A stretch of 57,338 bases of DNA, counting the filler, from Streblomastix strix (taxonomy: Eukaryota), in NCBI GenBank assembly GCA_008636045.1. It is 3 parts of 3 records of this genome, joined end to end, with 100 filler letters (N's around TTAATTAATTAA, not from the genome) between each part and the next. Parts side by side here need not be neighbours in the genome. Positions count along the whole stretch, not along the records: positions 1 to 19,052 come from SNRW01000550.1; 2 more parts are not named here. One strand, given 5' to 3'. Shown here one piece after another: positions 1-38,197 of the stretch. Made by a program: the position numbers and the translations under genes. Under the pieces are notes generated by a model. That model saw only the letters and a list, made by a program, of their open reading frames with translations. It was not told the DNA's origin and made no database searches. Position 1 is the stretch's first letter. The number at the start of each line of letters is the position of its first letter.

Positions 1-806
1 ATTATTTTTCGTTACAAGTAATATTAATCAATTGATAAGCATTATTTTAGTTCTTACCATCATATAAATTTAATCCACTTGTTAATTGTATATATAAGTT
101 GTTAGATAATACTACACTATCAACATACCAATTTCAATGTGATTTACTATTATATTCATTAACAACAGATGAAATATATTTCCCATACTAATTAAATAGT
201 TATAAATCTGTATATATACTTCCATTATTAAACATTTAACGCAGGTAATAAACATATCATTCTAACGGGAAATTTTTTAATGCTATTACTTATTTATTAC
301 ATCGTTAATGATAATATATTAATTGATATAGTATCTGTTTCAATTAAATTTCCATTCGTTAATGTTATATATTTCCCATAATTATACCTTATATTAATGG
401 AATATGATTAATCAGCATTTTATAGAGGTTCGATGGATGTTATGAAGTAATTAGCTGTAGATTCATATATCTTGATGAGACCAATACACCGATAATCAAT
501 AGGTAAATCAGGATCAACTATCCAATAATGATACAAGAAAGCGTTTAAACGTAAATTTATATAGTTTAATGCTGAAATACATATATCTGCTCCAATATTT
601 ATATTCAAACTGTATGTGCTATTCTATTATTTTTATGTATGTTCATTTACACTGTTATTGAAACAAATAGAATTGGAGTTAGTACTGTTGACTAGTTCGA
701 AATATTATTCCTGTGGTTCTATAAACTCATTAAAATCGGTTTGTTTCAATGCGTTTACGCTTCGGTTATTCAGATAAGATAATTTATTTGAATCTAGTGT
801 ATACAT
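1..806 (-). pseudogene. Degraded viral hypothetical protein (runs off contig start)
   Basis: ATG at 806 opens a long TAA/TAG=Q frame (MYTLDSNKLSYLNNRSV...) containing the 420-608 track ORF. An apparent frameshift follows near 240. No motif recognised. Confidence 0.4.
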
Positions 807-1138
807 ATTATTTATTATCGTATTCATTTTAATTCTAATCGGTGGAATCTATTCGATATTTTATAGTTTAAATGTTCCATTTGAATTCTTAATATATTGT
901 TTCAAGTTTAATCCGTTTAGATTATGTCGGATTTCTATTTATTCATCGATAATGAAGAAGCATAGATTTAAAGGTATATTGTTCGTGTAACTAATTTAAA
1001 ATTATCTATATCCAGTAGGGGCTTGAGCTATCCATTCAACTTAATCCTTTTCGCTATCATTGTTAATTATTTACAAACCTATTTAAGACATTTACATACA
1101 AAAATAATAACATTAGCGAAGCTCATGAACGAAGTGAA

Positions 1139-1940
1139 TCAGTGGATTGATCTCGCTGTGATGGTTTATCTAATTAGTTTCATTATCTCAGCTTCAATTT
1201 ATTCATTTGGAATAGTAAAACTAAGCCTTTTCATTTTAATACCTCTTTCATTTAACATATCTTTAATGACATGATTAATAGACACTGCTATTGGTAAATT
1301 ATAAATGTAAATTGCTGATCTTTATACAACTAAAGGATATTAATACTATTTTTATGCAATCTATGTACCTTGTAATACTTTCCATCAATGTCTTCGTTAA
1401 TGAGTTCAACTGAATACATATAGTCATATTGTTTATCTTATGGAACTAATCTAGATTCTATTTGTTATATTGTTTTACTATAGTCAGTGTTTTCACGTTA
1501 AAGTTGTTCGATAAGTCGATTAATATTAGCTTCAAAGTTAGTGTGTGTTTGTTAGCTGTTTTCGTTAATAGAATACATTATCTCTCCTACAATTGAAGCA
1601 TATTTCGGTGAAGCCCAAAAATCTATATAATTAATTAAATTAGGATGAATATAATATCCTACATAATCCACAGAATAAGTTTCGTTTTAATCAAGATATT
1701 TCAAGGGAGTAAAATTACTCCCTAACATTTTGACTAGATTTAACAAAATTAATTGAAATATTCTTTCCAATTAATAGATTTAAAAAATTAATTCAAATAA
1801 CTTTTATTACTTTATTTTATGATCATAACCATCTTTGAAGCAATAACATAGCCATCTGATTTATGGATGATTATTTCAATCCCATTGTATGTATTTTTAA
1901 TAAATTCATCTTTACCATCTTTTCTTACCGTTTATTCCAT
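1139..1940 (-). pseudogene. KilA-N domain protein, frameshifted
   Basis: Segments FIKNTYNGIEIIIHKSDGYVIASKM and GYYIHPNLINYIDFWASPKYASIVGEIM are typical KilA-N motifs, lying in different frames. Confidence 0.8.
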
Positions 1941-2687
1941 TTAAGCTATTGAAAAAATTTTGGAAAAAAATAGATATGATAAAATAAATCACAATAAATT
2001 AATATCATTAATAATATCATTTATTTCTGTATAATATATTCTATTTAATGTTCCCATTTACCCTAGTTTCTTAATGATTCTTAATTTTATAATTTCTTTA
2101 TTTTACTTTATTATTTTGAGTAATTATTATTGTTATTCCATTAATGACTATATCGTTTATAATTGCTAATAATGTTTATTTATTAATTGCTATTCGCTTT
2201 AGCTTAACCTTTAGGTTTCTTATGGTGTAATTTAAGTCATTTTACGTTAAAGATAAAAATAATAAAAAATCAATTTATCAATGATTCGAAGTAAATTTTG
2301 TCTTCTTTCTATTGTTTATAAATCAATTATTTTTCTTATTGTGTTAATTTCTTCATTTAGATCTTCTACGCTATATTATTTACATCAATTGGATATTTAT
2401 ATTGATATTAACCGGTTTACTTTAACAACTTGTCGTACTTTGTTTTACCATTTTTAGATTCGATTAGTTAATAGAATTGTTTGTTGTATAATCTTAGATC
2501 ATTAAACTTATACTCACCAAACTTATCAATAACCTTACCATTGATCTTAATATTATCCTGTAGTTAATGGAATTTTTATTTATCTTATTCTGAAAATTAG
2601 ATTTAAGTAAATAGTAAAAAATTAAAAAAATAGAGAGTATTATCACTAGTTTTTATGTCAATTTCACCATTTAGGACCATTAATGTA

Positions 2688-2876
2688 TCAATCTACTTTA
2701 CCTGCTAATTTAGCCCCTACTTCCATAGCTGATCCTATCGCAGGATGAATCATACTAACCGGTGCAGCTAATGTGCCTAGAACTTTATTAAATGTCGGAG
2801 CAACCCAATCTGCAGCTTTAGTTATACTTTCTAATATTTTACTACCGAAATTTTTCAATCCAAACCTAAAACCCAT
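2688..2876 (-). CDS. Small amphipathic virion-like protein (adenovirus protein VI-like N-terminus)
   Basis: MGFRFGLKNFGSKILESITKAADWVAPTFNKVLG...; Gly at position 2; amphipathic pattern; head-to-head with the putative MCP. The TGA may be premature. Confidence 0.5.
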   Translation of the reverse strand: MGFRFGLKNFGSKILESITKAADWVAPTFNKVLGTLAAPVSMIHPAIGSAMEVGAKLAGKVD

Positions 2877-2935
2877 TTATTATAATAAAAATTAATCAAA
2901 GTTAACATTTAAGCTGTTTCTTTTTTATAATCTAA

Positions 2936-4877
2936 ATTTCATTTGCATCAAGCGATTATTTGAAATGGTTATCTTCAGCGTAACATTCGGATTACATTAA
3001 TTCATACTCATAATTCTTGGGTGTAATGAAGACTTAAACTATTGTAGCATAATCGTTTAGTACATCTAAATAATAATTCTTTGATTAATCGGTGACCTAA
3101 CTTACAAATGAATGTACACATCATACTAGAGCTCCACTTGCAGCAATAGAAACTGCAACATGTTCATGTGTATAAACTTGTTAAATCAGTTAGTAAATAG
3201 AGATACCTAAAAATACATTGGCGATATAGATTAATGATATATAAAATGATGGTGCTGCATGTATGATATATTGTTAGCAAATATCTAATTATAATGCTAT
3301 TGATACAGGATTATGGGATACACCTTAATTAGTAACAATGGAATCAAGTGATACTGAAACAAAATATGTTTATAACCTAGAAGAATATATTAGATTTTGG
3401 TTATTCTTCTCCACTGCTTGTGGTCCATTTAATTAGATTGCTATATGTAAAGATTCATAGAAATTGTGGGATACTTCAATATATACTAGAGAATATGCAA
3501 TAATTGCATCAAACTCATTGACAGATTAATGTACCGTTAATTCTGTTACAGTTTCTCCACTTGAAAGTATAGTAGAAGGTAAACGACATTGATTGATATA
3601 TATGTATCAGCAATTAGTGTTGCAAGAGCTTATAACTATCTAATTTCTTATGATATGGTATTTAGTGGAGTAATGTATCTGAACTAATTGAATTCTATCT
3701 TTAACGGCTTTCCTGTAATGACTAGAAATTATTCTTCATTAAATATATAATTATGGATGCATGACTTCCTGTAAAATTTGAAAGTAATATGGTTAAATAA
3801 ATATAATTCAATATCAAATTAATATCTTGCGTAAGCAATGATTCCACCAGAGAAACCGGATATAATTGTCTTATAAAATGGAACTAATAGTAATTACACT
3901 AAATATGCTATTTGTCTAGTTAATATGGTAGGTAAACATAATATAACTACTAAATACCAACAGCTACAATAAGTTAAATTTAAAATGCTAAATTTACTGA
4001 ATTTTATATAAATAACTTATGTTTTAATATGGATAATGAAAATGTAATTGTTGATATGATTCGTAATCAAAGACTCATTAACTTTCCAACAAAAGTTCTA
4101 CGTAATTAATCATCTAAATATCCTGCAAGTAATATTGGTGGAGGAGGTGGATTTATTTAAACAATAATGTCATTTGCTAACATCAAGTCTCTACTTATTA
4201 CATTTGCTATGCCTTAATATCCGATATGGTTCTTCCCTGTTCTATTCAAAAAAATTGATTTGATTATAGATTAACGTCATGTTATTCCAAGCGCTTATCC
4301 TGTATTAACATAAGATGTTTGATGTTAAATGTTTAATTGTTTCGTTAATTAAGATGTAACTAGTGCCTCATCCGATTTATATCATTCATTAATGTTTGAA
4401 AACTAAAATATAGACGATAAAAATTACCCTTATGGATATGAAGGTAGCGCGACTAGAATGATAGAGAATGTGTTTTATAATATTATATTGTATAATGGTT
4501 CTAAAGCAGTTAAAGTATTCTATCCTAATTAGTTTATATTAGCACGGAAATTTGCTATTGATGATTCACTTATGCGAGGATATAACTCATCTATGGTAAG
4601 AACAAGAACTAATATACAAGTTTAAATCGGCGTTACACCTGTAGAGGATATTATTACTGATGATATTATAAGACTACCTCTTATTGATTAAAATGATTTT
4701 AAATATTTTACCTCAACAAGATGTTATCCCAATATTAATAATGTTAAATTAACACCATTAACTCATTATCTATGTAATGGTGTTGTTCGAATAATGTTTG
4801 ATGATAATCCTGATCCATAAAATCTATCGTTAGAGGTTATCGGAGAGATAGGAGGGAGTACCATCCGAAGCGGATGA
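2936..4877 (+). pseudogene. Putative major capsid protein of the Polinton-like virus, disrupted
   Basis: About 640 codons of beta-strand-like sequence recovered across at least two frameshifts and in-frame TGAs (e.g. ACGPFNQIAICKDSQKLWDTSIY; IKSLLITFAMPQYP; PLTHYLCNGVVRIMFDD). Size and context fit a double jelly-roll MCP; not confirmed by search. Confidence 0.55.
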
Positions 4878-4939: not shown

Positions 4940-5434
4940 ATGAATCAAGACCAATAGAAAGTATTCAAAGCATTAACGACAAAGATAATCAAAGATAATT
5001 TTCAAGATAATAAGCTTCTAGAGCAACTTGATAATATGATTAGGGATATGTTATAAAATTGTACAGATATATCTAAAGGATATACAGCTCATCCACTTTA
5101 CTATGAGTTAGTCAACCTTTGTAGTAATTTTGATACCATGAATGAAAGATTATATTAGTTTAAACGATAAAGCGATATAGAATAGTACAGTAATAAGTTA
5201 TATAAGGAAAATCATTACGAATATATAAAAATATATAATAAATGTAAAGAAGAAATAAACATTAATCCAAAAATAATCAAAATAAAACAATATTTATTAA
5301 TGGATGCAACTAATGAAGACAAATAGATATATAACTAGTTCATATCTGAATAGAAGCATAAGCTATTTTGTGATTATTATTAATTAAAACCAATCATAAC
5401 TGAGCTAATATAGTTAAATAGTCAATGTATTTGA
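4940..5434 (+). CDS. Viral hypothetical protein, 164 aa
   Basis: Uninterrupted ATG-to-TGA frame with TAA/TAG=Q (MNQDQQKVFKALTTKII...). Confidence 0.5.
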
Positions 5435-5995
5435 TTAGCTCTTTACACTTGTCTGAAAGTATTAATTCACCTCTATCATAATACTTATCTTTAGTTTCAT
5501 AATAATAATATTATTGTTTTGTTACGCGTCGTTTAGTTGTTTGATGTCATTTTTAAAACCAGAGCCACTGAGTAATATTTCAAAGATATGACATACTTAA
5601 TTATCTGATGTGTTAATCTTTTGTCCTAGTTTTTAAGCTATCGTAAACAATTATTGCATAACTCTAAGAAAACCATAGGTTTGAGTTTAACTAATCTCCG
5701 ATTATTATTCCATTTTAATAGAAAAATAAATCATAGATCAGTATCAAATTCATATTATCTATATCTAGATTATTCTACTTCTCTTACTACTCTTGTTTTA
5801 TGTAACATTCACTAAATATTGCTAAATTGTTTCATTTTTTAAATAAAATTCTTTCTTCTTATTCGATTCCTTTATTTATCATCTTCACTAATTGCTAATA
5901 ATCTTTCCTCATTAATTATCTCAATTCTACTTCATCTTATTCATTTAAATGTATTGTATTATAACTCATTTATGATAATATAAAAAGATAAAAAA

Positions 5996-6718
5996 TCAAA
6001 ATACCCTACCATTGAACGTTAATGTATTTCCATCTGCGAATATTTATAATCCTCTAGTATTATCACCTGCTTAAGATGCTACCGCAATTACAAAAATTTA
6101 AGGGTTATTTGTCGAATTACTTGGTTGTGTAAATATTGACCATTATCATTCAATGGCACTGGTGTTAGATGTTCTATTACAACCTAACTAAATCGATGTA
6201 TTCCATGTATTTGTTAGATCAGCTCTAGATATTTTCAAACTATTATTATAACCAGTAGCTGTATATTTTACTTAAAAATTACCAGAATTAACATTATCTT
6301 AGAAATTTAATGTGTTTCCATCAGCGGATATCATTAATCCTTTATCCTGACTTATTTATATATTAACTCCTATCCTTAATTCACCGATGGGTGTGTTTAC
6401 CATACTCCACTAATCAGTTAATGTTCCATAGGTTAAATTTGGATTACTACCCAAATAAATTCCATTATAGTTTCCAATGGTAGAACGTGATATTCTTAAT
6501 TCTTCATTAAAATTATTACTATTTGGTTATATTAAAACAGTTATCACAAATGTTTTTGTACCTGCAATCGTTTAATCAGTTCCAGAATCAATGTATCCCA
6601 AACCATTGAAAGTTAATATGTTTCCATCAGCACTGATTCGTATTCCTTCGTTAAATATTCCATTAATAGTTGGAATTACTTATAATAATTTACCGAATGT
6701 TTTTATACCAGTAATAGT
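5996..6718 (-). pseudogene. Fibre/spike-like repeat protein, 3' part; 5' end cut by the element end at 6716
   Basis: Repeated motifs TIxGxKTF (x2) and GxxIxADGNxLxF (x3), Gly/Asn/Thr-rich, with frameshifts. Confidence 0.6.
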
Positions 6719-7118
6719 AGTTAATGAAAAAGGACGATGCACTCACATTGATAAACGCAGTGATTTGCCCACATCAGAAATAACCAGTGATATTGCGAAT
6801 TGCTGAGATATGAAAAACGAATGAATTATCCAGAACCGAAAATCGAAGAATAAATTTGATGTTAATAAAGAAATTCGGATAATATAATAAACAATAACAT
6901 TTATGAATATCATTAGTAATGAAAAATAATTGTATGATTTATGTAGCGTTAATAAAATAATTAATTATAACATTTATGAATATCATTATTAGTGAAAAAT
7001 AATTGATATGATTTATGATATGTATTAATAAAAATAAATAATTGATTTGATTTCTGAACCTCACAAACGAATAGAATTTAGGCATTGTTTCGGGCATCGT
7101 CCTTTTTCATTAACTACT
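6716..7118. repeat. 403-bp fold-back with perfect 25-bp inverted ends AGTAGTTAATGAAAAAGGACGATGC
   Basis: 6716-6740 is the exact reverse complement of 7094-7118. An internal ~70-bp imperfect tandem duplication lies at ~6894-7040. Confidence 0.85.
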
Positions 7119-7841
7119 CACAGCCCAAATCAATGATTTGAGCGATACGTGCTAACATATATTGGCTATTTGACTATGTCCGATTAAGTTTTCATTGATA
7201 GAATTGAGATAATGGTACCGACTAACTGGTCGATGAGTGAAACACATTATTTGATGAAATTGATGATGATGAACAGTTCCAGAATTGATTATAATGATTG
7301 TTTTTGGAATCTATGAGTAAGATATGACCTTAGGATAGCCTTTGAGAGTCATATGAAAAATTAAGTTTTTAATCAGAATTTTGACCTATCATAAATTTAT
7401 TTTATTTTTATTATATAGACTGAAAAATCATAGAAAAATTGAAGTTTTTTGAATGACCTGAGAATCAATATACTAGTCAATGTTGATACGCTGATCACAA
7501 ATATAATGTTTAAAATGAGTGGATGGACTATTGATTCGGCCGAATTAAGCGGATTAATGAAAAAGATTAATGATATGGATGAATGATATGAAATATCCAT
7601 GCAAATAAAATATGGCAGCCTAAATGAGTGATGGGACAAAATGGTCTGTCCTCATTAGTATGTGTGTGCTAGCGGAGTGGACGAATTGAATAAATATCAA
7701 TGTGAGACAGTTTTGGGACGGGACAAATCCGTGGACTCCTGTGAAAAAGTGTTGCCATATTGCCATCCATGCCATAAATTTGAATCATGGATGAATGATA
7801 TGAATTGTCCATGTCAGCTTAGCTGGCTTTTGCAAAAGCAA

Positions 7842-7916
7842 AGTGTCCTGAGTGACCTGAGTGTCCTGAGTCACAAGCTGGATCGATTTGAGATCTGCCA
7901 TTAACCATAATGCCAT
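7842..7916 (+). promoter_or_regulatory. Iteron-like cassette 1: 3x AGTGTCCTG followed by a GCCAT/ACCAT triplet
   Basis: agtgtcctg-agtgacctg-agtgtcctg-agt, then tgccattaaccataatgccat ~27 nt downstream; ~55 nt before the helicase ATG. Confidence 0.7.
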
Positions 7917-7971
7917 AAATCAAATAAAATTATTTTTCTCAAACTTTTTCAACTTTTTATCCTTATGCAAA

Positions 7972-10698
7972 ATGACATCAGAAGAATCCACAAGCGTCGA
8001 AACAAAATCAATTCAATCCATAAACGTTAAACATATTACATTAGAGAAAGGTTCAAAAAGATAATATAATCGCAAATCGAAAACTGATAATAAAGCTAAA
8101 GAATTAATGGACAAATTACTAGAGGAATAAGAATTAGCGAGAATCAAATGTGAATAAGATGAATTTGATGCGTAAAAGAAAGAAGATGAAGAATAAGAAT
8201 TTACGAGACATCTAATTGAAGACATTGCTTAGAAAAAGTTGAAAGAATAGTAAAAATAAGAATAGTAAATAGAAATGGATTAATTTTTAGAAAAACTTAT
8301 ACCAATTGCTGTATAAATTAAAGAAGAAATAGTGAGTAAAACTATCATGGAAAGAGTTAAGAATGCAATGATTAACACATTAAATTATACTAAAATAGGT
8401 TAAAAAGAAGGTGAGAAAAAATAAGTAACAGGTAAATTAATTGATTTGACTCTAGTTGAAGATGGTGATTTATGTATGATTGATTTCGATATTAATAAGA
8501 AACTATCAATTGAAGAGACTGATATAATAAGATAAAATATAATAGATAATATGCATTCTGCTAATGTAGGCTTAGTAAAGACCGCACATGATGGATTGCA
8601 TGCTTATTGCAATAGAGATGGATATACATTACCTTCGAATCGATGTGTGAAATGTATCGTATTAGATAGTATTGAGATTGATATATTTGGATAAATGTTT
8701 AAATATAAGGAACATGGAGGAATGGAACAAAAGGAACTTGTATAAAATCGAGTAGTTGGTCCAAACTCATCATTCCGAGAAACAAAAAATAATAAAAGAG
8801 AAACACTTAAATATGAAGCTATTAATGATTGGGCTAATATGACACATTTAGCGAGTCTGAGAGAGATCTTAGATAGCTGGAATGTCGGTATTGAGATACC
8901 GTTCAAAGAATATGTAGACAAGGTAAATATGAGAGAATTTGGTTGGCAAATCACAGAAGAAGAAACTATTTATATGATGAATGATGAACTTGCATAAGCA
9001 TGTGTTAATGGATTGAAGAACCTTGAAATACATTACTATCCTTAATCAATCAATATGGAAGTATCACTTCTAAGTGTATTCTCTGGATTATATGGAATCA
9101 CTAATGAATAGATTAGAGCAGAAGGAATGAAAAATATACGATAATACAATAAGCTAACTCCAAACGCTGAAATGAACTATGGATAATCATCATTTAATGG
9201 AGAACGTAAGCCAAATTCATGGATCCTTACAAAAATCCTAAGATACCATAACAAAGATTACTATGAATAGATAATTAAGCCATTATTGAAATAGAATTAT
9301 GAAGTGAAAAAATAATAGAAAATATCTGATACAGTGTAATAAATTGAGAATCATGAAAATGACTTGAAAGATCAGTTCACATTAATAGATGTATCTAGCA
9401 AAGCATTAAATGGAAAATATGAAAATAAATTAGAGTTAGTTGCATAAAATTTACTGAGAATAATTAAAGTTATACCTTGCTAGAACGGATGGTGCTTCAT
9501 CATTAAAGAATACGATTGTATCGCAGGAAAAAATACTATAAAATATAAAAATAAGACAGCCTTATATGATTAGTTACGTTCAATTAGATTATGGTAAGAT
9601 GGGAAGAAGCATATCACTGCAATTGACGCTTTAGAATAATATCATTCACTACTTGAGAAGATTGGCATGAAATTCACTAGTAACAATGAAGGTATATTCA
9701 ATGTATTCTAAGGATTCAAATATATGCAATTAGATGAAGTGGATTAGATAAAAATAGATAAATTCCTAGGATTAGTGAAAGATACAATCTCAGTGAATGA
9801 TGAACGAGTTTATGAATACATATTAAATTGGTTTGCATTCATTGTATAGAATGTTGGAAAGAAAACTGAAACAGCTATTATACTTAAAGGATTATAAGGA
9901 ATAGGTAAGAATGTGTTCACTAATGTCTTATGCGAATTACTTACAGGTTACTCTTCAAAGAATATCACAGATATCGATGATTTTGTAGGTAAGTTCAACA
10001 CTGCTATTGAGAATAAGATGTTGGCAATTGCTAACGAAACGAAGAACTTTGGAGAATCGAGAATGTCGAACATGGATGCGTTGAAGTCGATAATTACTGA
10101 AAGTTCCTTTGAAATTAATGAGAAGTATGTTCATAATCATGAAGTTGAGAATGTAGTGAATATAATGATTGTTACAAATAATATCTATCCATTGAAGATT
10201 GAAAATAGTGATAGGCGTTATGTTGTATGTGAATGAAGTCCAGTTCATCTAGTGGATCTAGCTTACTTCACTACTCTTTGCAATAGTTTTGATGAAGATT
10301 TTTATAATAACTTATTCACATTCTTTATGACTAGAGATATTTCATAATTTAATCCAAGAAACATTCCAATGACATAAGCGAAGAAAGATATAATAAAAGC
10401 ATCAATCTCACCCGTTGATGATGTAATAATCAGTCATTTCAAATCATTTAGAGATGGAGTTACATGCAATATTGTTGAAGGATGGAAACCATAAGAAATG
10501 AAATTAAAGAATTATTAATTAGCAATCAAAAATATATGTGAAAGAGTTAGAAAAACAAGAGGTGGAGAACGTAAATGGATGTATTAATTGAAAGAAGAAA
10601 TGATATCAATCTATGAAAGTATGCTAGATGAAGACGCTGATGAGATTAAAGAATAAGTTGAGTAAGAGATATAGAATGATGGTAATGAATATATATGA
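7972..10698 (+). CDS. AEP (Prim-Pol) primase fused to SF3 (D5-like) helicase, ~908 codons, one internal TGA at 10234-10236
   Basis: Single frame with TAA/TAG=Q. AEP motifs MIDFD, KTAHDGLHAY, EIDIF; Walker A GLQGIGKN; Walker B-like LAIANE; motif C IMIVTNN; Arg finger DRRY. Confidence 0.9.
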
Positions 10699-10743
10699 AA
10701 TTATTTTTGCTTGGAATCGTGGAAAATAAATGTGAAATGAACT

Positions 10744-10817
10744 AGTGTCCTGAGTGTCCTGAGTGTCCTGAGTGTATGATATTCTACATTGAGATGCTGC
10801 CATTACCATTCTGCCAT
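10744..10817 (+). promoter_or_regulatory. Iteron-like cassette 2: 3x perfect AGTGTCCTG plus GCCAT triplet
   Basis: Same layout and spacing as cassette 1; lies between the helicase stop and the ATG at 10863. Confidence 0.7.
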
Positions 10818-10862
10818 TAATGTTTTACTAAACATATAACATAATTTTTTATTATAATATAA

Positions 10863-11147
10863 ATGACACAAGGAAAGATGAGATACATTAACCCTTTTGA
10901 TCCACGCGTATAACGATCATAGTATCTAGAGTTCAGCAGTCAATTTCTAGATTAAATTATTAAAAGTCATGAAGATGAATTCATAAAAGGAAGAACGTTT
11001 CTATAAGTAATGGATCTATAACAAAGAAATATGCAATTAAATGAATTTCGTACATTAATGTTTAACAAATTAGATAAGAGATAGTTAACCAAGACTGGTA
11101 AACCAGCTGCAAAACCAAAGTACTATTTGAGGAAAGATGATAAATGA
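10863..11147 (+). CDS. 94-aa basic protein paralogous to the helicase C-terminal domain
   Basis: Intact ATG-TGA frame. MTQGK...LDQIIKSHEDEFIKGRTFLQV...MQL aligns by eye with helicase MTQAK...VDDVIISHFKSFRDGVTCNIV...MKL. Confidence 0.75.
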
Positions 11148-11218
11148 ATTATTTTTGTAATTAATGTGTGTGCCAATGATGATATGTACAAATGAGAAAT
11201 GTTGAATTAAAAATAAAT

Positions 11219-11370
11219 ATGGCATTATGGTTATGGCTTGATCTCTGATTGGAAAGTCATAGACTCAGGACACTCAGGACACTCAGGACACTAGTTTATT
11301 TTGAATCAATTCTCCATGATTCCAGCACATAAAAATGCCATACATTTTTCAACTCAGGACACTCAGGACA
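11219..11370 (-). promoter_or_regulatory. Iteron-like cassette 3 (inverted) plus two extra repeats
   Basis: 3x CAGGACACT at 11263-11292 with ATGGC/ATGGT triplet at 11219-11237; two more units at 11352-11370. The flank to ~11326 is an imperfect inverted copy of 10709-10817. Confidence 0.7.
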
Positions 11371-11604
11371 ATCTGATAAATAACCCCATTTGCACTTACA
11401 CCATTAATCAACACATTAACGCTCACAAATTATCTCAAAAATTAATCCGACCGACCGACCGACTTTTTCTATTTTAGCCATTTTAGGGGTTTCAACTCGG
11501 CACATCGGCACACCTGAACAATTCACTTCATTCATCCACTTCGTTAACGCACACCATTAATTCAAAAATAAATCAAAAAACCTTTGGTTTTGAGCTCTGC
11601 TAAT

Positions 11605-12245
11605 TCATTAATTATATCGATCAATTATATCGCTAATTTAAAGTAAATCATGTACGTCAGTTATGACAGTTTTCTAAAGACGTCGAATCAAGAGGAGTTA
11701 TAAATCGTTGGCAGATGCTCGGAACTCTTATCTCTGTATTCTATATTTTTATAGTGCACGGGATCGTTACTCTGCGGCAATGCGTTCGGCTTCTTCAGGG
11801 CTACTATATTATGGTTAATAAATTTGCTACTTATGAAGAATGTATTTATCTTGTTTTCTATATAGAAATCCTTTAGAAATTTCGAATCTTAACATTTCTC
11901 ACCATTTCCTCTTATATCATCAAACCGAACCAGTTTTGTCAACTATTATAGTGCATTTAACATTGGAATTTATGCTTTTGATAATATAGGTATTACTTCC
12001 TAATTATTTTTCATTTTGGATACTTAATCAATTTCCCAAGAATTATAATTAGGTGAGAAATAAGGACGTTCAAATTTTGAAAGTGGATTAAGCTAATAAT
12101 CATGTTGTTCAAATGTGTTAGTTGAAGGGTAGATATCGAATTTGTTTTTCGTTTAGTGAGTTGTAATATCATAGTAATTAGCTTTACGGATAACATCACA
12201 CTTTGATTTGAAAAAGAATTGGTTTTATTGTGCTATTTCTTACTA
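11605..12245 (-). pseudogene. Internally deleted rve integrase remnant fused to the remnant of its downstream small ORF
   Basis: RPYFSPNYNSWEID, IRGNGEK and KFINHN match the integrase at 16243. It is followed by YSSPEEAERIAAEQR...NDLQLLLIRRL, matching the 17692 ORF. Confidence 0.75.
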
Positions 12246-13499: not shown

Positions 13500-16010
13500 A
13501 AATATTCCATACGATTTGTCCTAAACAACATAATTCTTAGCTGTTTATCCTTTAATATAAGGACAACAACATTAATTCCTAAGTACTATTGATTTATTAT
13601 TGAAACCAGTTAGTGCATACTTTTCTACTTGAATACTACTCATAACATTATCGTACATTTTTTAGTGTTCCATTAATACTTTTTTTCATTATATTTTTAT
13701 TTTTTACATTTTTATAATTTATATGAATTATTTCCTATGTTTTACTAATTCTTTTTGATATTATTTTTGGTTTAAATTCAAACTTTTATTTGTCTTTGTT
13801 TCACTTATGAACTATCATTGAATAGCGTTTTGCTCCTAATGATGTAAGCTCATATCCTTCATTTTAAATACCAAAACCAAGTATCTTTTTGTAGTCATAG
13901 ATGTCCTTATTTGGGCCTGGCAAATACTAGTATACATGTTAGTCATAGAATTGCTTATCTGTTACTATAGCTTCAAATTATTAATGACAGTCTTTAGCTG
14001 GATTACCTGCTATAGCTATATAAATTGAATCAGTATCAGCAAATATAAAATTGAAACGTCTTCGGATAAGAAACTTATACATGAAGTTATAGAAGCAATT
14101 GAGATACTAATATTTCGCATTATCTAAGGTAAAAACTCCTGATTAAAGTGATGTAAAACAAATAACTGTCTTAGGCAGAACTGATACTGCAAATATATTG
14201 GCACTAATACATCTGGTACCAATGTGATTAGGAAGATGTTATGCAATAAATGTATCAGCTTTATCTAATAATTTTATTTTACCAAACTTCTCTGTATTTA
14301 ATATGTCATACTTATAAGACACGTTAATCATTAGTTTGTAAAATTTCTCTTTAGAAGATCCTGCTAATATAGCTTAAATTCTTAAGTTCATCATCGTCCT
14401 AACAAATGGCTCCTATTCCGCAACTTTCTCAAAGACTGTAATAGCTTTATAATCAGTAATGATGAAACCAAGATCAATAAATAACTATAAATAATAGTTA
14501 TTGAATACCATAAATTGACCGTTAGTGTCGAGTAATGTTGTCAATTTCTTTTCCCTCTTTGTCATCGGAAGTAAATGATTTTGTGCTAATGAATACATAT
14601 ATCCATCACTTCTTCTTTGGTTTTTATCTTTATATTTCTAAATATTGGTTGTAGAACAAGTACATTATTAAATTCTGTTTGAGGGAAATAACCTTTAACT
14701 TTTGCAACAAATATGTCTTTCACAAATTAATACAGTATTTAATAACATAAGGTTTTTCTAAATAGAATTTTTACCTTTCTAGCATATACATTCTATGATT
14801 GGTGTAAGGGATATTTTTATTTTTAATTGATAAATATGAACTTGGATAAAGATTATTACCATCAAGAGCGAATACATAAGTAGTAACATTTTCATTATCT
14901 TATGAGATCACTTTGTTTAATTATTCGTCATAAGTTAATACATTTATATAAGTTTTGCTTGCAATATTTTCCCAATGGAATACTGCTGCAAGACCACCTG
15001 TAATACATACTCGAAGTAATTTATATATTCTTTCATCATTTATTGTCATTGGTAGATTGTTCTTAATTGCATATTGTCTCATCTTGATATGTAATGATGC
15101 TATTTTTGGATCTCTATTTGCATGCGCTATATTACATGAAACACATGTAGGCAAACAGTTATCTTTTGTATGAGGAAGTTTGTTATTTTTTCTATCTAAG
15201 CATGATGAATTGTTATTAGAAAATTTTGCATTACAAATAGAACATACTGATGACTCAAACAACTTTTTATAGTTATTGTAATCATTTGATGAGACATTGT
15301 TTTCTGAATCTTTAACTGCTTTATAATTTTATTACTTATAGTTATAATACATATCTTTCCAGTACCATTCCGTTAGTACAAAAGGTTTAGCATTAGGATT
15401 TGGATTAGTATAATCAGCATTAATATTAAATTCAGAGTAATATGTCTATTTGTCACTTTCAAGATTGAATTTAGAAGGAAAGTATGTTGAATGGTGTTTC
15501 GTTGCATATGCGCATGAAGAAATTGAAATATAGTGTAAAACATCAATATTGAATTATTCAAATGTATCATTTAAATTCATTAATGGTTTAACCATGATCT
15601 CCGTATCATTAATATTATAATATTTGAAGTATTCTAACCTGTTGGTGAATCTCTTAAAATCAATCAAATATTAATCATATTCATCTTTAGCGATAGTTCA
15701 ACCTCCTTTGAGTTATGACTTGAAATCATCATACTCAAATAATTCTGTTTTCATCAATTCTTTTTTTCCTATTCTTTATATTGATAAATTCATATGGGAA
15801 TATATCTTTATATTCAGATTTATCTCCATCATCTTTTATACTTGATTTTAATGTCATTAGTCCAAATAGATTCTCTGCATCAATGAATTGTAATTTCATA
15901 TGTGATTTCTTGTGTGTTACTGTTCTTGAAAATTAGTGTTGTGTCTCATTCCTACACATTAGCAGATATCAATTGAGTTCAGATAATTATGCAATTATTA
16001 ATGATGAGCA
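13500..16010 (-). pseudogene. Protein-primed family B DNA polymerase, 5'-truncated and frameshifted
   Basis: KDIFPYE; Exo III YYNINDTEIM; ITGGLAAVFH; motif A ALDGNNLYPSSY; motif B FYKLMINVSY; motif C FADTDSIYIA; SLGAKRYS. Confidence 0.9.
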
Positions 16011-16035
16011 GTAATGATAGGCATAAATATTAAGC

Positions 16036-16157
16036 ATTAATTTGGCACGATAATTTGGATTGGCTAACGAATGACTATTGACTGCAACGAGTGCAACGAG
16101 TCAAAAACTTTCATCAAAAACTGCTGCCATTCTGCTATTCTGCCAGAAGTGAGAAAA
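16036..16157 (+). repeat. Left arm of imperfect inverted repeat with variant iterons (AGTGCAACG) and TGCCA triplet
   Basis: Reverse complement of ~18070-18195 over ~120 bp. Confidence 0.8.
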
Positions 16158-16242
16158 TAAAGCTGAATAATTATTTAAACGTTAATATTGTCATTAACTT
16201 CCTCACTAATGCCTTTAATTGTTTTATTTTTATAAAAAATAA

Positions 16243-17643
16243 ATGTTAAACGAAAATAATTTGAATGAGGATATACTTAGGACTTTTTAAGGAGAATAAT
16301 ATCAAAGAGAAGAAAATGAATTTGAAGTATAATAAGATATCGATGATAAAACATATAAAATTCATTATAAAACGAGTCTATCAGAGTTCATAAAAAATAT
16401 CTTTAAAATTGCAAAGAAAAAAAATGTCGATGTTATAGTAGAAAAAGCTGATGAAATAATTATTGGAAAGCTAACAGTTGCAGATTAGTATTATTATTAT
16501 TATATTTCAGTTTAATTATAATTCGAACCATCAAAATAAAAAAAATATAAATAAATAGATGAAAAAAATGCATAATAAGCGGTTTAGATATCCAGCCAGT
16601 AATCCGCACCCATTTAAGGTGACGACGATGAAAATATGCTCTATTTTCCTTTAAAAACAAAATTAAAATTGTTTGAAAAAAAATAAACATAAATAAGCTA
16701 ACAATCAATATATTCCAGTGAAAGATTATAAATTAAAGCCATTATAAAGATTACAACGACCTTATTTCACTCCAAAGTTAGGGAGTTGGGAAATAGATAC
16801 AGTCTTTTCAATCGATTAAGACTTGTAAGAAAACAACAATGAATATGATGGTGCTATCTTTGAATAAAATGAAATATAAAATATAAGAGAAAAAAAGAAG
16901 AATAATAAATGCATATTTATTTTTCAAAAACATTAATACAAAATATTTAGTCGTTTATCCATTGATAGATAAATCAGCCGCATAAATAGTTGGATAATTG
17001 TAAAAATTAATTAAAAATTATTACATAAATAATATTCGTGGTGATGGAGAGAAAGGATTTAATAACTCGTATTTTGCTTTGTTTTGTTCATAATATAAAA
17101 TTAATGGTTATTTCACTGATTCAAAAATTCACTAATCATAATAGAGTAGTCGATTCAGTTATTCGTACAATAAGGAATGCGTTTGGTTATAAATTTAATT
17201 AATTTTTAACGAATCAATAAATGTAAACAGTCGTTGGTATGCTCAATAATACACCACATCTTGCGTTTCAAAATAAGTATAGCTCATATTAAGTTCAATT
17301 ATCAAGAGATTTAGAAGGATTATATATACGTTCATAAATGAAGAAATTAGAGCGACAACCAGCAAGATAGCGAAATGAAGGCCTATTATCATTTAAGGCA
17401 GGAAATATAATACTAACCCATCTTGATTCCTAAAAAACATAATAAAAATTTATGAAATAATGAAACAATTTCAATTAATTAGCGAAATTTATTCGATACG
17501 TAAATGGTAATTTTTTATGCAGATTATTAAATAATTTTTATAAATTAAATTTAATAAAAATATTATCACATTATAGTAAATAAGTAAGTGAAAATAAAGA
17601 ATTTATACCATAAAATTATGCAATAAAGTTTTTATTTAGATGA
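16243..17643 (+). pseudogene. Retroviral-like (rve) integrase of Polinton type, frameshifted
   Basis: RPYFTPKLGSWEIDTVF (D1), NINTKYLVVYPL, NIRGDGEKGF (D2), FTNHNRVVDSVIRTIRN (third acidic residue), NNTPH; about three frameshifts. Confidence 0.85.
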
Positions 17644-17691
17644 AATATTAAAAATTATATATATAATTTTCATTTTTTTATCGTATAATAA

Positions 17692-18033
17692 ATGACAGCT
17701 ATTGAGACTTTCAGCGAGGCAATCAACGAAACAGTTAATGAAGCAATCAATGAAACAATATAAAAAGATTCATATAATTCAACAAAACAAGGACATATAA
17801 AGAAATATACCGCTAAAGAATATGCAATGATTGCTGCTAGGGAAGAACGCAAAAGTGCAAGAATTAAATACAAATAAAATTAAACAAATTATATTTCTAA
17901 AGTCAATGATATGCAATTATTAATAATTAAAAAATTTATAAAAATAATTGTGAACATTAGTTATTTAATAACAATTAATGAATTAATTAAAAAAATACGA
18001 AAATAAAAAAGACATTAACGAAGATGCTAATGA
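17692..18033 (+). CDS. Small basic hypothetical protein downstream of integrase, 113 aa
   Basis: Open frame ...GHIKKYTAKEYAMIAAREERKSARIKY...NDMQLLIIKK; homologous remnant at 11605-11812. Confidence 0.55.
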
Positions 18034-18069
18034 TTCAATCATCCTTTGAACAATATTTAATTTTAATGT

Positions 18070-18240
18070 TTTCTCATTTCTGGCAGAATGGCAGGCTGGC
18101 AGCTGTTTTTGATGAAGGTTTCTGACTCGAAGCACTCGATGCACTCGGTGTAGTCAAAAGTCATTCATTAACGATTCCATTTTCTCGTGTCAATTTCATT
18201 AAATACGATGATGCTTTATAACTCGATGCACTCGGTACAA
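18070..18240 (-). repeat. Right arm of the inverted repeat with variant iterons plus two extra units
   Basis: tggcagaatggcaggctggca, then cgaagcact-cgatgcact-cggtgtagt at 18128-18154; extra units at 18221-18240. Same layout as 11219-11370. Confidence 0.8.
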
Positions 18241-18360
18241 TCAAACGTTCTATAATTTTACTATTGATTTCACCAATTAATTTTAGGTTTCCAGCCGCAA
18301 GGCGAAGGTCGAAAGACTGATATAACCAAATTCATTAATGGAATCCATTAACCTTTGCAT

Positions 18361-18617
18361 GCAGTTATGTGAAAAAAGAGAGTGCCATACATTTCAAAAA
18401 TATCATTTAATGACGTATATCACTAATATACTTCAGTGTCGCACATTCATAAATCATTGTCAATCATGTTCTTTCAATAATATCGTTTAAATATTTATTT
18501 TCTTTTACATTATTTATTTTCATTATTTATTTTACATTAATTATTATTATTATTTATTTTACATTATTTTTGTTTTATTTTTGAATGTGGGGCACTCTCC
18601 TTTTTCACATAACTACT
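18361..18617. repeat. ~255-bp fold-back ending in ...CACATAACTACT (Polinton-like terminus)
   Basis: 18361-18402 (gcagttatgtgaaaaaagagagtgccatacatttcaaaaata) pairs imperfectly with 18576-18616. The end resembles the 6716 terminus. Confidence 0.75.
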
Positions 18618-19010: not shown

Positions 19011-19052
19011 TGGGTTGGGTCGGGTCGGGTTGGGTCTGGTTGGGTTTGGTCG
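19011..19052 (+). repeat. Degenerate G-rich pentamer array (YGGGT)n at contig end
   Basis: tgggt tgggt cgggt cgggt tgggt ctggt tgggt ttggt. Confidence 0.7.
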
Positions 19053-21130: not shown

Positions 21131-22437
21131 TTTCTATTAGGCAAAGAAATGCTTGATTTAAAAACTTTAGTTTGAAATCAATTTTTAATTAATAAAATTC
21201 TTACAATTATAGTAATAAAATTTATAAATTTCAAATACAAATTTATAAAATAATTTGAATCGAAAAATGGCTTTATGAAAAAATATATTTCCTGCAAGAA
21301 GTTTCATAAATATAGAAAAGTGATGATAAATAATGACTGTGTGCATATCTTATTTGAGAAATTCTGTTTTTTTCTATCATATATGCTCATTTTTGATAAT
21401 ACCTAGCTTAACGCTATCATAAACAGTGAAAGTAAATATATTGTTTATTGTACATCTCCATAAGTGTGATTCATATACATGATATGAAAATCAATTCTAT
21501 ATATGGATCTGGAAATAAATGGCGAATATATGTTTTTTTACCATCCTATAATTCTTTCAATATCTAAAATGCAGAATTTTAAAAGGACATGAAATTTAAT
21601 ATTTATATTTGCAGATGGGCTTGTACTTATGATAATCGCTAGACATAGCTATTATATTTAAATAATCCTTAAAATAATTACCTGAGCATGGTTCTCTGTT
21701 CGTACTTTTGCAGTTTCGCTCTAGATATCGAGCTAAAAATTTTGCTCCCATAAAAATTATTTTTATCAAATGGCATGCTATAATACAAAATTTTGAAGTA
21801 TTAAATTAAAAAGTCTCAACAAAAGTTTCAGCTTCTATTATTTAATTGAATTATATTTTGACTGATTCACTTAAATTTTTATTTATAGTTTAATTTCAGT
21901 AACTTAATTCAACATTTATGTAATTTCTCAATTATTTTACATAAAAATGAACGTAGTATTTATTCCTAATAGAAATTATACAAAACAATAAAAATATATT
22001 AGAAATTTTCTTTTTATAATTCATATTATAGTTTTTTAGAAAATCAGGTCAACTGAATGGAATGTTATTTTAAAATTTAAGAAAATTTTGAATTTATATA
22101 TTTTTTAACTAAAGTCAATAATATTTATAAAAGTTCTATATAAATTAAATATATTTACTCTTACATTTAATTTTTCATTCACAATAATAATTTTTTTGCG
22201 TGTTTATTAATTGATATATTTATATTCGATAGGCTATTCTAATGAAGATACACCTCTGAATGTATTATAGTCAAGAATTAGTACTCTTGAAGGAGTGTTA
22301 AATGAAATTTTCGATTTAATGCAAATTTAATAAATATCAATTAATTATTACTTTTCTTAATTTTGTATCATATCTCCATAATTTTATTAATAATTCTTAT
22401 TCTCTGTATTCATCTAGCTTAACATTGGACAGATCAA

Positions 22438-22857
22438 ATGATGAAGATTCTCATCAACTCGTTATATTCAAAAAAGGGCATTTTCCTAAAAGAACTTGAT
22501 AACACACTTATGCTCGACGAGGACGAAGACACTTTATTTATTTATAATAATTTTTTATTATTGTTGTTACTCTTATTACATTTATTATTTTATTTTATTT
22601 ATATTTAATTTATCAAATTCGTGACATTGCCAACGAATTCAGTGAATTCATATATTTCACCATATATCTACGAGTAGAAGAAGACACAAAAGACAAATCT
22701 CGTCATAGAGATGAATGAATAAAAATAATATTTATATTAAAATATAATAATACTTATATATAATAGATATGAATACATAAATACAAACAAAGCCATTTGG
22801 CAGAGAGATCATAAAGAAGTTAACGAAGAAGAATATAAAGACTTCTTCAAAGTGTGA
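22438..22857 (+). pseudogene. Captured Hsp90-family (Grp94-like) gene fragments inside the transposon
   Basis: MMKILINSLYSKKGIFLKEL; TLMLDEDED; QIRDIANEFSEFIYFTIYL; YEYINTNKAIWQRDHKEVNEEEYKDFFK, in native Hsp90 order with the ATP-binding core missing. Confidence 0.85.
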
Positions 22858-22969
22858 TATAATTAAATTTGATAAAATAGATAAATTATTAATTTGAAAA
22901 TGCCCTCTTTTATTTAATTTTTATTTGAAACAATAATTGTGAAACAATAATTAAAAATTATTTAATAGG

Positions 22970-25310
22970 TCAATTCTTATCGTTTAATTTATCCAATTCC
23001 ATTTGTATTATTTCCTTGGACATGTCATCATAATCAATAGATACATCTGATTTCTTCACTTTATTAGTACATTTTCCCGATTCCGATTCAAACTTCACAA
23101 CAACTCCTCCAGATTCTTCAGATTAACTTGCATAGAACATTCCATCAATTACTTCATAGTTAAGGTATTTTTAGAAATTGTTCAATTTTAATTTTTTCAC
23201 ATTGACATTTAGTTTATCAATGTCATATTCCAGTACGACCTATTTCAAGTTCTCTGGCACATTGAATTATAGAAAGTCAATCATTTAATGCAAGGTGTTG
23301 ATTCCTGAGCATGGCAATGACAATTGTATTAAGTTGGCATACAGGCCAAAAATGGAATCAATATCTGATTTGCCATGTTAAGACTCAAAGTAGTGCAATG
23401 CGAAATGAAAAGTTTAACTTATATGTAAATTAAATATATTAATAGATATTATTATTATCAATATAAGTATTATTTTACTCAATATATTTTTAATTATATT
23501 ATACTTATCCTTTCTTTTCAATCCAGACAATGTTGATTATCCAAACTCTTTGGACTTAAAACAGCTTCCTCCATCGCTCCACCAGTTGATTTTTTTCATT
23601 GATACAAATTCGTCCCGTTCAAGGATTGACTGAAGACAATGAAGCACCACTTATAAAGTATGGGTCAGAACTCTGGAGAGAATCGTATAAACTCTTTTGA
23701 TGACCCCAAGTATAGATCCAAAGAAAGCTACAAAAGATAAACAGGAAATTGGACATCTATGGAAGAGTTGAAAGCTTTATTAATCATGATAAATACCTAA
23801 ATCCCAATTTTGCTTGTAATCTCCAACTAATACGGCCTCACCAGGTTTAACTTCTTTTTTCATTTTGTTATACTTTTCTCTCTATTTTTTCTATCTCTTT
23901 TGATGTTTATACCACTCTTTCAGAAGTTATTTTTCCTTTTCAGGTACCTGATCAAATGTCATTTTCTTCATTTGCATCTTTTGAAATATTTTATTTGCTA
24001 AGAAATAACTAGAACATAGATCTGTACGCTACGTAGGATAAACAATATTCCTTAAGATCTTGTAAAAGAAGGTTTTTGAAATTGAAATAAATGGAAATAT
24101 GGATTTTATAATATTACATATCTTATTTTTTGAATAATAGCAGATCTTCTTCTATTCAATGAGCTGAAATTAGCCTCTTAATCTTGTGTGAAGTAAAGTG
24201 CGCAGGGAGATCTTATCAGCATCACCTTGTTGGATCTATTTCAGAATCTCTGGAATATTATCTCGATCAACCAGTATGGATTTGATTTATTAAAATCTAT
24301 TATTTCTTTCATATTTCTTCATCAATTTTAAAATATTAATCATACTTAGAATTATAAAGAGATTAATTAAATTATTTCAATTTCAAATCTTATTAATCTC
24401 TTTCTTATTATTTAAGAATTTTTTCTGGAGAAATGAAAAGAGGAGTCGTTGGTGATGATAATGATGGAACTTGTATATTGATTATTCTTTGTGTAATGAT
24501 TGGTGTTGAAATATAATTATTTTATTTCATTTATTGTGATTTCAAAAATTATTCTTTTTTAATTTCAGTACATAACTCTCTATTCCTTTATATTTGTTTT
24601 CTGTTTCCATAGTCAGTCTCAATGTCTACAGGTTACGATAATTTTTTAGTTAGACTTTATTTTCCCAAATCAGTCAAGAAAAGATCATGGAAATAAGTCA
24701 AAAAATCGCTGATTTCAACTCCAGAAAAATCTGATTTAGGGAATTTGAATGTTATATTAAGTTATTTTAAATATATTGATAATATTAATTAATACTAAAA
24801 CACTAATAATTTTATATTTATACCTTCGATTACAATAACATCATCCTTGCCTTCAAAAATTTTTACTTTAGATTTATATTTAAAAAAAATTTAAAATAAA
24901 TAACATAATTAAAATTTTCAAACCGTTTCTTTTTTAGTTTAAACATGTATCTGTTGAAATCATTAAAATAACACTGTAGATTATAGCAAGATCCAAGGCT
25001 AATGGACCTTATAGCTCAAAAGCGATTGGGCGAAGCTCTTCAGTTCGAATAACAATAGGGTCGCTGCTTCGTTTCTTTGCAGTTTTAAATTTGGAAGGTG
25101 ATAATTTATAATCGTTTTGCCTGTTCCAATCTGCAAATTCAAATTCAGAGCAAAAAATTGTTTTGAATGATGAAACAAAACCTGGATCTAATTTTTTTTT
25201 AAATTACGATGCATTCTGAAGAATATGCTAAAATTGGTCTTTATTAATATTTAATTGAATTTTTGGTTTAAAAGTTTGAAGTTAATCTGAATTAATTTGG
25301 TCTTTTCCAT
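22970..25310 (-). CDS. Sola2-type DDD transposase, intron-containing
   Basis: AVLVGDYKQNW (D1), WWSDGGSCFKSK (D2), YFESQHGKSDIDSIFG (D3). The catalytic core reads open with TAA/TAG=Q; intron at ~23414-23503 and others 5'. Confidence 0.8.
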
Positions 25311-38020: not shown

Positions 38021-38197
38021 TAAGTATAATTAAAAGGGAGGAAATGAATATTAAATATAAAATATTTTACTTATATAATAATTGTACAATAAACATGTAT
38101 ATATTTCTATCTTTCTATTGTATTTTATCCTATATTAATATGTAGGAGCAATTGCATTTATTATGGAAAAGCTGATAGCATCAGCATCTTCATTTCG

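Follow-up and report, generated by a model that had tools for sequence, protein, structure and literature searches.

In the initiator protein (Rep) of the Staphylococcus aureus pathogenicity islands (SaPIs), a C-terminal winged helix binds iterons just downstream of rep, set in opposite directions round an AT-rich region (PMC9371898). P4 alpha and pRN1 ORF904 share the same domain order, the P4 alpha primase being a DnaG (PMC2777425), and the D5/NrS-1/P4 clade is treated in PMC9611036. In Polinton-like viruses (PLVs), modules of archaeo-eukaryotic primase (AEP) and superfamily 3 (SF3) helicase beside integrases are known, as is module turnover (PMC11296320; 10.64898/2026.06.19.733378; 10.64898/2026.07.28.741278). 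Here we consider a primase-helicase gene and its flanking 9-bp repeats in a 57,338-nucleotide stretch of Streblomastix strix DNA (assembly GCA_008636045.1; three parts joined with filler), hereafter the window. The best explanation, to which we give about an even chance, is a replication module of an endogenous, likely Polinton-like oxymonad element, with a SaPI-like origin of converging repeats behind the gene, an optional winged-helix competitor and, probably, specificity groups.

The gene product resembles SaPI5 PriRep in holding primase, SF3 helicase and winged helix in a single chain (Z 19.5). As in SaPIs, repeats lie right behind the initiator gene in two opposed sets (C2 and C3 below; a second copy, P0263, has them too). 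Unlike SaPIs, the module has a eukaryotic host and code, 9-bp repeats (5-6 bp in SaPIs), sets some 490 bp apart with a gene in that interval, one further set at the promoter, a GCCAT triplet, and an rve integrase as neighbour. NrS-1 and pRN1 ORF904 are the nearest solved structures (NrS-1 helicase region, E 1e-23, Z 27.9; prim-pol, Z 8.4-9.8). Unlike them, the window carries a stand-alone winged-helix paralogue; none was noticed in the pRN1 account consulted, which gives pRN1 no recognisable iterons and, as small regulator, a separate repressor, ORF56 (PMC2777425).

A preliminary description of this DNA took P4 alpha as its model. That comparison stands for the SF3 helicase and C-terminal winged helix, but not for the primase: because it is of the AEP rather than the DnaG type, pRN1, NrS-1 and SaPI are closer models. 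P4 also had no match in our sequence or fold lists. Yeo et al. in 2002 reportedly described, for P4 alpha and Cnr, regulation through dimerisation of winged-helix proteins.

Among PLVs, those of the Metamonada group are most like this locus: the primase-helicase stands beside an integrase, the elements are endogenous, and those of S. strix read TAA and TAG as glutamine (PMC10120064; PMC11296320; 10.64898/2026.06.19.733378). S. strix itself is reported to carry endogenous viruses of this group with the same code (PMC10120064). Module swapping is common in PLVs, and inverted repeats have been proposed as origins for their primase-helicases; for PLVs without a protein-primed polymerase, that account takes origins no further than this proposal (PMC11296320). 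The element surrounding the module is likely Polinton-like. The locus differs from the known modules in its 9-bp repeat arrays, allelic wing, winged-helix-only open reading frame (ORF) and shared integrase arms. No description of such arrays, wing, ORF or arms around an integrase was found in the open-access literature consulted on Polintons and oxymonad elements.

A primase-helicase with a predicted winged-helix end

The genes and cassettes at the centre of the locus are these:

7842-7917, plus strand: cassette C1, three 9-bp repeats (AGTGTCCTG type), a 25-nt spacer and a GCCAT triplet, 54 nt upstream of the ATG
7972-10698, plus strand: AEP primase/SF3 helicase/winged-helix gene, 908 codons, table 6
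10537-10590, plus strand: beta-hairpin of the wing (residues 856-873), which comes in alleles and is hypervariable when close copies are compared
10688-10826, plus strand: arm with cassette C2 at 10744-10818 (repeats 10744-10773, triplet 10799-10818)
10863-11147, plus strand: 94-aa ORF, by profile comparisons a stand-alone distant paralogue of the winged-helix domain
11210-11348, minus strand: inverted arm with cassette C3 at 11292-11218 (repeats 11263-11292, triplet 11218-11237)

In the window TAA and TAG encode glutamine (the ciliate-type code, table 6). So read, the primase-helicase gene has a single in-frame TGA, at codon 755 (10234-10236), and no frameshift. Its product carries the AEP motifs D171-x-D173 and H210, invariant or nearly so across 25 relatives, and Walker A (G640-K646). 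An SF3 AAA+ domain with Walker A, Walker B and motif C is present: the primase-helicase scores 69.9 bits against Pfam DUF5906 (PF19263; cut-off 27.6), and the NrS-1 helicase region (6k9c) is its sole significant sequence match in the PDB. As the preliminary description had it, the gene is near-intact and less decayed than its neighbours: by a crude count it has one stop, whereas four genes nearby have 5-14 in the single frame that reads best.

The AlphaFold model (84 sequences, pLDDT 86.8) agrees with the domain order first proposed. Residues 125-311 align with the pRN1 prim-pol (Z 9.7-9.8), and the pRN1 and NrS-1 prim-pol alignments together span residues 123-311. The NrS-1 alignment covers residues 484-872 (root-mean-square deviation 4.3, 361 aligned) and that to SaPI5 PriRep (PDB 7ola) residues 470-869; African swine fever virus PrimPol and poxvirus D5 also align, from about residue 470 to 873. 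In the model, residues 802-884 take a winged-helix layout, helices followed by a beta-hairpin at 856-873 (pLDDT 94-96), and with the full-length model as query the structural alignments to NrS-1, SaPI5, D5 and PriRep1 reach residues 869-873.

The protein is a member of a large S. strix family: all 76 of its matches are S. strix proteins, as are all three of the small ORF. Full-length relatives at about 30% identity come from metagenomes. The window gene is a once-broken copy of a multi-copy gene, with nine private changes at columns invariant among close copies; the other copies were assessed through protein records and Logan contigs. In P0068, a gene model from another contig, a divergent second primase-helicase subfamily (29% identity) is followed by a 95%-identical piece of the present one, adjoining an integrase.

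A stand-alone winged-helix paralogue

The 94-aa ORF between C2 and C3 had been called a stand-alone copy of the helicase's own C-terminal domain. Homology is supported: it scores 18.0 bits against that domain (best of 2000 shuffles, 9.6) and 27.8 bits against a 120-sequence profile (13.1 for shuffles), and hhalign gives 94.6% at 26% identity, although direct BLASTP against the neighbouring helicase is not significant. "Its own" is overstated, because the neighbouring helicase gives 15.1 bits where other copies give up to 19.2. These comparisons point to an old paralogue of the winged-helix domain, not a recent copy.

On another contig, a homologue (locus tag 006693) adjoins a helicase (006694). 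The ORF is apparently not present in every copy; it has 3 homologues, small ORFs being under-called, and the helicase 76. Structure prediction, proposed at the outset for both proteins, gave clear matches for the helicase only. The 94-aa model, built from 3 sequences, reaches pLDDT 62.9 with no resolved wing; Foldseek returned no fold match at E<=0.001 and the best VIA hit has Z 4.5, an uninformative outcome for a 3-sequence model.

Converging repeat arrays behind the gene

Each helicase-side cassette consists of a 30-nt repeat block, a 25-nt spacer and a triplet that reads GCCAT-ACCAT-GCCAT; the middle repeat of C1 carries one mismatch. The C2 repeats start 45 nt past the helicase stop, and C2 ends 44 nt before the ATG of the 94-aa ORF. 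C3 has no gene to drive in the direction it faces. Its arm is inverted to that of C2 (139 nt, 74% identity). Thus the two earlier observations hold, that the same cassette precedes both genes (none of the three cassettes occurs in shuffles) and that a third faces back from downstream. At up to one mismatch, AGTGTCCTG has 14 matches where 2.7 are expected, 11 of them within 7842-11372. Amplification fold-back was considered as a source of the inverted arms and ruled out, the arms being merely 72-79% identical.

Further, degenerate units are stacked on either side of the helicase (7567-7815 and 11346-11573):

7567-7604, plus strand: TGGATGAATGA-type motif, with a second copy at 7778-7815 and an inverted one at 11512-11547
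7655-7780, plus strand: outer upstream cassette C0, GCCAT triplet at 7754-7776, without clear 9-bp repeats
11352-11373, minus strand: outer repeat dimer, AGTGTCCTG type
11448-11573, minus strand: 126-bp unit, a homologue of 11346-11445, that begins with (CGAC)4 and includes a TGTGCCG-type variant repeat dimer

In another copy (records P0057 and P0319), the helicase leader follows directly on C0. As for the weak outer inverted match of the preliminary description (7664-7690 with 11527-11554), it is real but modest, scoring 33 against 26 for the best of 200 shuffles. It is not a unique end but a repeated motif, because the same motif fits better at 7788-7814 (85%) and occurs at 7567-7599. The variant dimer of the 126-bp unit lies at 11497-11515. 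Contigs join 11573 back to 11448 in tandem, and 5277 to 11448 with AG in front, pointing to the end, or a tandem array, of some other element.

Related arms around an integrase

Beyond a convergent integrase neighbour (the first two entries below), the same kind of cassette brackets a second gene unit:

11895-11605, minus strand: small basic ORF behind the deleted integrase
12362-11799, minus strand: rve-type integrase, internally deleted, convergent neighbour
16036-16235, plus strand: arm with cassette C4 at 16089-16145, AGTGCAACG repeats and a GCCA triplet, before the second integrase
from 16243, plus strand: rve-type integrase, frameshifted (unit 16243-18033), with UniRef-named homologues
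17692-18033, plus strand: 113-aa small ORF, homologous to the ORF at 11605-11895
17987-18248, minus strand: inverted arm with cassette C5 at 18146-18081, AGTGCATCG type, 72% to C4
18222-18248, minus strand: outer repeat dimer of the integrase unit

Homologues of the integrases are named "Integrase catalytic domain" in UniRef; the Pfam rve_3 match is weak and under the cut-off (E 0.023). The two small basic ORFs, each behind an integrase, share 30% identity over 66 aa, and their domain also ends the integrase models P0240 and P0241. C4 lies about 100 nt ahead of its ATG. In the helicase-side and integrase units alike, an inward-facing arm stands just behind a small ORF and is followed by an outer repeat dimer.

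A compound cassette pattern finds C1-C5 and nothing else in the 57 kb, with no match in 100 shuffles. This pattern was drawn after all five cassettes were known, although an earlier version, from the helicase-cassette repeat layout, had found C5. The link between helicase and integrase cassettes rests on it, nhmmer profile similarity between the two types being weak (E 0.65-2.4). The pattern search found no cassette ahead of other viral ORFs of the window. The refuting case named at the outset, a generic promoter ahead of many unrelated viral genes, holds in part: the cassette also stands before one unrelated gene, the integrase, but not before the other viral genes here. Because the integrase arms share it, the cassette is not confined to the helicase, and because those other ORFs lack it, it is not a general promoter. 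In IMG/VR the general pattern matched no contig; the sole match to the exact repeat run (L001) is a chance hit, a GC-rich stretch in an apparently proline-rich coding region.

Allelic wings and repeat variants

The wing is far more variable than its surroundings. Among eight close copies it diverges by 0.375 per site against 0.108 over the rest of residues 665-884, a value that none of 5000 column permutations reaches. Copies about 90% identical differ roughly 3.5 times more in the wing than in the rest of the domain, and the differences fall into discrete alleles. In a set of 17 copies the values are 0.34 and 0.09, with a background lowered by choosing the set on identity next to the wing; two main alleles are carried by six and five of them. 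C856, K861, R867, K868, Y871 and L873 are fixed in the eight copies and the intervening positions change. Wing and core identity are unrelated (Spearman 0.15, pairs not independent): P0015 has a 96% core and 8 of 18 wing residues, P0009 a 92% core and 17 of 18.

From 137 records examined, the wing could be read in 38, four of which have tails that translate a repeat array. Wing allele and repeat variant agree in all five copies readable for both, the window included. The window, P0044 and P0263 combine an ERKWMY-type wing with AGTGTCCTG-type arrays, and in P0263 forward and then inverted arrays of this type follow the gene. P0054 pairs a VCKFIY wing with an inverted AGTGCATCG-type array, the variant found in integrase arm C5. 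P0051 pairs a YRKRLY wing with AGTG(C/T)ACCG-type repeats, found by a looser scan only. Further repeat variants occur in P0007, at 11497-11515, and at a contig end at 16097. The variability suggests that the wing is a variable specificity site, and the pairing suggests a match between wing allele and repeat variant.

A model for the locus

On the reading to which we give about an even chance, the predicted winged-helix tip would bind the 9-bp repeats. Helicase hexamers would load through it at the opposed sets C2 and C3, the candidate origin, and melt the AT-rich DNA between them, where the AEP domain would prime, and perhaps also extend, synthesis. C1, at the gene's own start, would be an operator-like site through which the gene regulates itself, and the GCCAT triplet would supply the arm's promoter part. 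By competing for the repeats, the 94-aa protein, a winged helix only, would damp or block replication. Wing alleles would shift in step with repeat variants, splitting the family into specificity groups, and the variant arms around the integrase may mark a segment controlled by a helicase with a matching wing. The module adjoins an integrase gene within a larger element and would not be a free 3.9-kb satellite. Of the iteron-controlled replicon first proposed, inside a Polinton-like virus, this keeps what domain order, small-ORF homology, converging repeats (also in P0263) and wing variability favour; the independent satellite is dropped.

Several points weigh against this reading. Sequence-specific binding by the pRN1 ORF904 winged helix could not be demonstrated (PMC2777425). 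No repeat array stands behind the helicase of L007, a locus from another organism (below). The same cassette brackets an integrase, which a helicase origin does not need, and C1, C2 and C4 each sit 44-100 nt ahead of an ATG, as promoters would. The acidic tail equals the wing in variability; in a comparison of 120 distant domains the variability of the wing does not exceed that of the preceding helices; and the 94-aa protein model is weak. Support in the core tree is low inside the close group (29-65), so allele swapping is not formally demonstrated. The match of wing and repeats is only suggestive, because the other copies' repeats were back-read from mis-spliced protein tails rather than DNA, because the strict peptide count test is weak (3 matches, shuffle mean 0.79, 7 of 200 shuffles reaching 3; without the periodicity filter, not above shuffles), and because the wing lies <200 bp from the downstream repeats, where linkage alone could yield a match.

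A bolder extension, which we put forward tentatively and consider rather unlikely, is that these are incompatibility groups, in the manner of plasmids, in a eukaryotic endogenous virus family: a swappable wing co-evolving with a four-base code in the 9-bp iterons, winged-helix-only proteins interfering between groups, and iteron-armed segments, the integrase unit among them, replicated in trans by whichever helicase matches, in effect a multipartite system.

At this locus a specific sequence can be named as candidate origin and a specific surface as candidate for recognition, with alleles of the surface and variants of the repeat both provided by nature. If the replication-module reading is true, the iteron, initiator and competitor logic of bacterial plasmids and satellites would extend to eukaryotic endogenous viruses, with a hint as to why many related copies diversify in one genome. 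Otherwise the gene is no more than a young pseudogene from a replication module already known.

Alternative explanations

The strongest alternative, possible though doubtful, is that the cassettes control transcription of the element's genes for replication and integration. They would combine enhancer repeats with a CCAT-type core promoter, and a factor from the host, or another one from the virus, would bind them; the inverted copies would be duplication remnants, and the wing would vary for some other reason. The AT-rich leaders between C1, C2 or C4 and their ATGs (54, 44 and about 100 nt) fit this, as does the fourth GCCAT triplet, in C0, directly before the helicase leader in P0319. The cassette serves two unrelated enzymes, and both PLVs and virophages are known to carry promoter motifs ahead of their ORFs (10.64898/2026.07.28.741278). 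However, C3 and C5 point back into small ORFs from their 3' ends, with the stops 70 and about 50 nt away; this leaves no room for a gene, and it is so in two independent units, each then followed by an outer repeat dimer. No cassette precedes the other viral ORFs of the window, and a transcriptional role does not account for the match between wing allele and repeat variant.

An improbable alternative takes the arms as transposon-type ends bound by the rve integrase, so that arm-gene-arm units (integrase and small ORF; 94-aa ORF; helicase) would be separately mobile, nesting into Polinton-like genomes. Two units do have inward-facing arms (140-210 bp, 72-75% identity) plus an outer dimer; the inverted arm behind the P0263 helicase is nearly the reverse of C1; the arm after the P0039 helicase combines features of C2 and C3; and the left integrase arm abuts a polymerase-like gene that, on our reading of frames, seems to lack its start. 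Yet no target-site duplication of 5 or 6 bp is present at five candidate end pairs, and the 4-bp candidates are palindromic and lie within the arms. Repeat variants go with the helicase wing, and the flanks are common to several copies: the upstream flank 7631-7780 recurs in P0057 and P0319 (mis-spliced gene models), and the downstream stretch 11651-11861, antisense of the small ORF behind the deleted integrase, in P0050, P0054, P0087 and P0273.

An independent satellite or plasmid-like replicon at 7660-11555, recently entered into the virus, as first suggested, is very unlikely. In its favour, the segment is far less broken than its neighbours and has inverted cassettes around it, and mobile helicases with flanking repeats are on record for entomopoxviruses and for PLV end modules (PMC11296320). 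Against it, what were taken for end motifs occur again at 7567, 7788 and 11346-11445, neighbours on both sides are common to other copies, no target-site duplication was found, and the 3 small-ORF homologues (under-called) stand against 76 for the helicase.

Conserved context

A helicase facing a small ORF and integrase is a conserved context, because the gene models of the copies run into the same neighbours. Helicase and integrase adjoin in four other gene models and in the adjacent locus tags 009540 and 009541. In L007, from another organism with TAA and TAG as glutamine, positions 15-4082 hold an intact primase-helicase, a small ORF and an rve integrase in the same direction. Streblomastix queries found no related loci in IMG/VR or JGI; distant-relative queries found five, four and three loci, L007 being the only full-length relative.

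The content between the converging arms apparently differs from copy to copy. The P0263 tail (a spliced model) has no match there to the region of the 94-aa ORF, and in one sample contigs depart from the window sequence at 10701. Four runs from three studies (X1 and X4 being one sample, possibly the source) yielded thousands of variant contigs. Their summed depth, which does not measure copy number and carries no weight in the argument, passes 7660 without a step; every run has low values over 10840-11373, and values are high over 11400-11900 and 16000-18400.

Virus-like surroundings

The leftmost 19 kb or so of the window holds broken virus-like genes, and the right-hand part host-like genes. 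KilA-N at 1231-1728 scores above the Pfam cut-off. A broken gene at about 13650-16030, with DTDS and D-x-N-x-L-Y-P-S motifs that we take to mark a family B polymerase, has no polymerase match in Pfam or PHROG; it contains an endonuclease VII-like insert (PHROG 1035, E 1e-5), and its start was seemingly removed by the left integrase arm, from a reading of frames. Fragments at about 3060-4877, a candidate for the double jelly-roll major capsid gene, have no significant Pfam or PHROG match; Metamonada capsids are reported to be detectable by modelling only (10.64898/2026.06.19.733378). Window self-BLAST found no long terminal inverted repeat pair across the viral region, which is nested and begins before base 1.

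On the minus strand at 2688-3060 lies an ORF with an amphipathic stretch (GFRFGLKNFGSKIL...) that may resemble adenovirus protein VI-like capsid proteins. A 403-bp piece at 6716-7118 has 25-bp inverted ends that match perfectly and start with AGTAGT. It contains 73-bp tandem repeats, shows no target-site duplication and splits a gene with TITGxKTF repeats, presumably fibre-like. A sequence resembling this piece comes after the helicase in P0044, and one contig links 6717 to 17676.

A 40-nt inverted repeat at 18363-18614, and GGGTC/GGGTT repeats beside an assembly gap at 19012-19052, are possibly the end of an element. At 21620-25464, inverted repeats of 118-134 nt (81-85%) enclose a 457-aa ORF (22970-24343, minus strand) that has no significant Pfam match and motifs we assume to be transposase-like; this is likely a DNA transposon. 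A 147-nt inverted repeat (96%) at 37418-38197, in a host-like gene beside a gap, may be an amplification fold-back.

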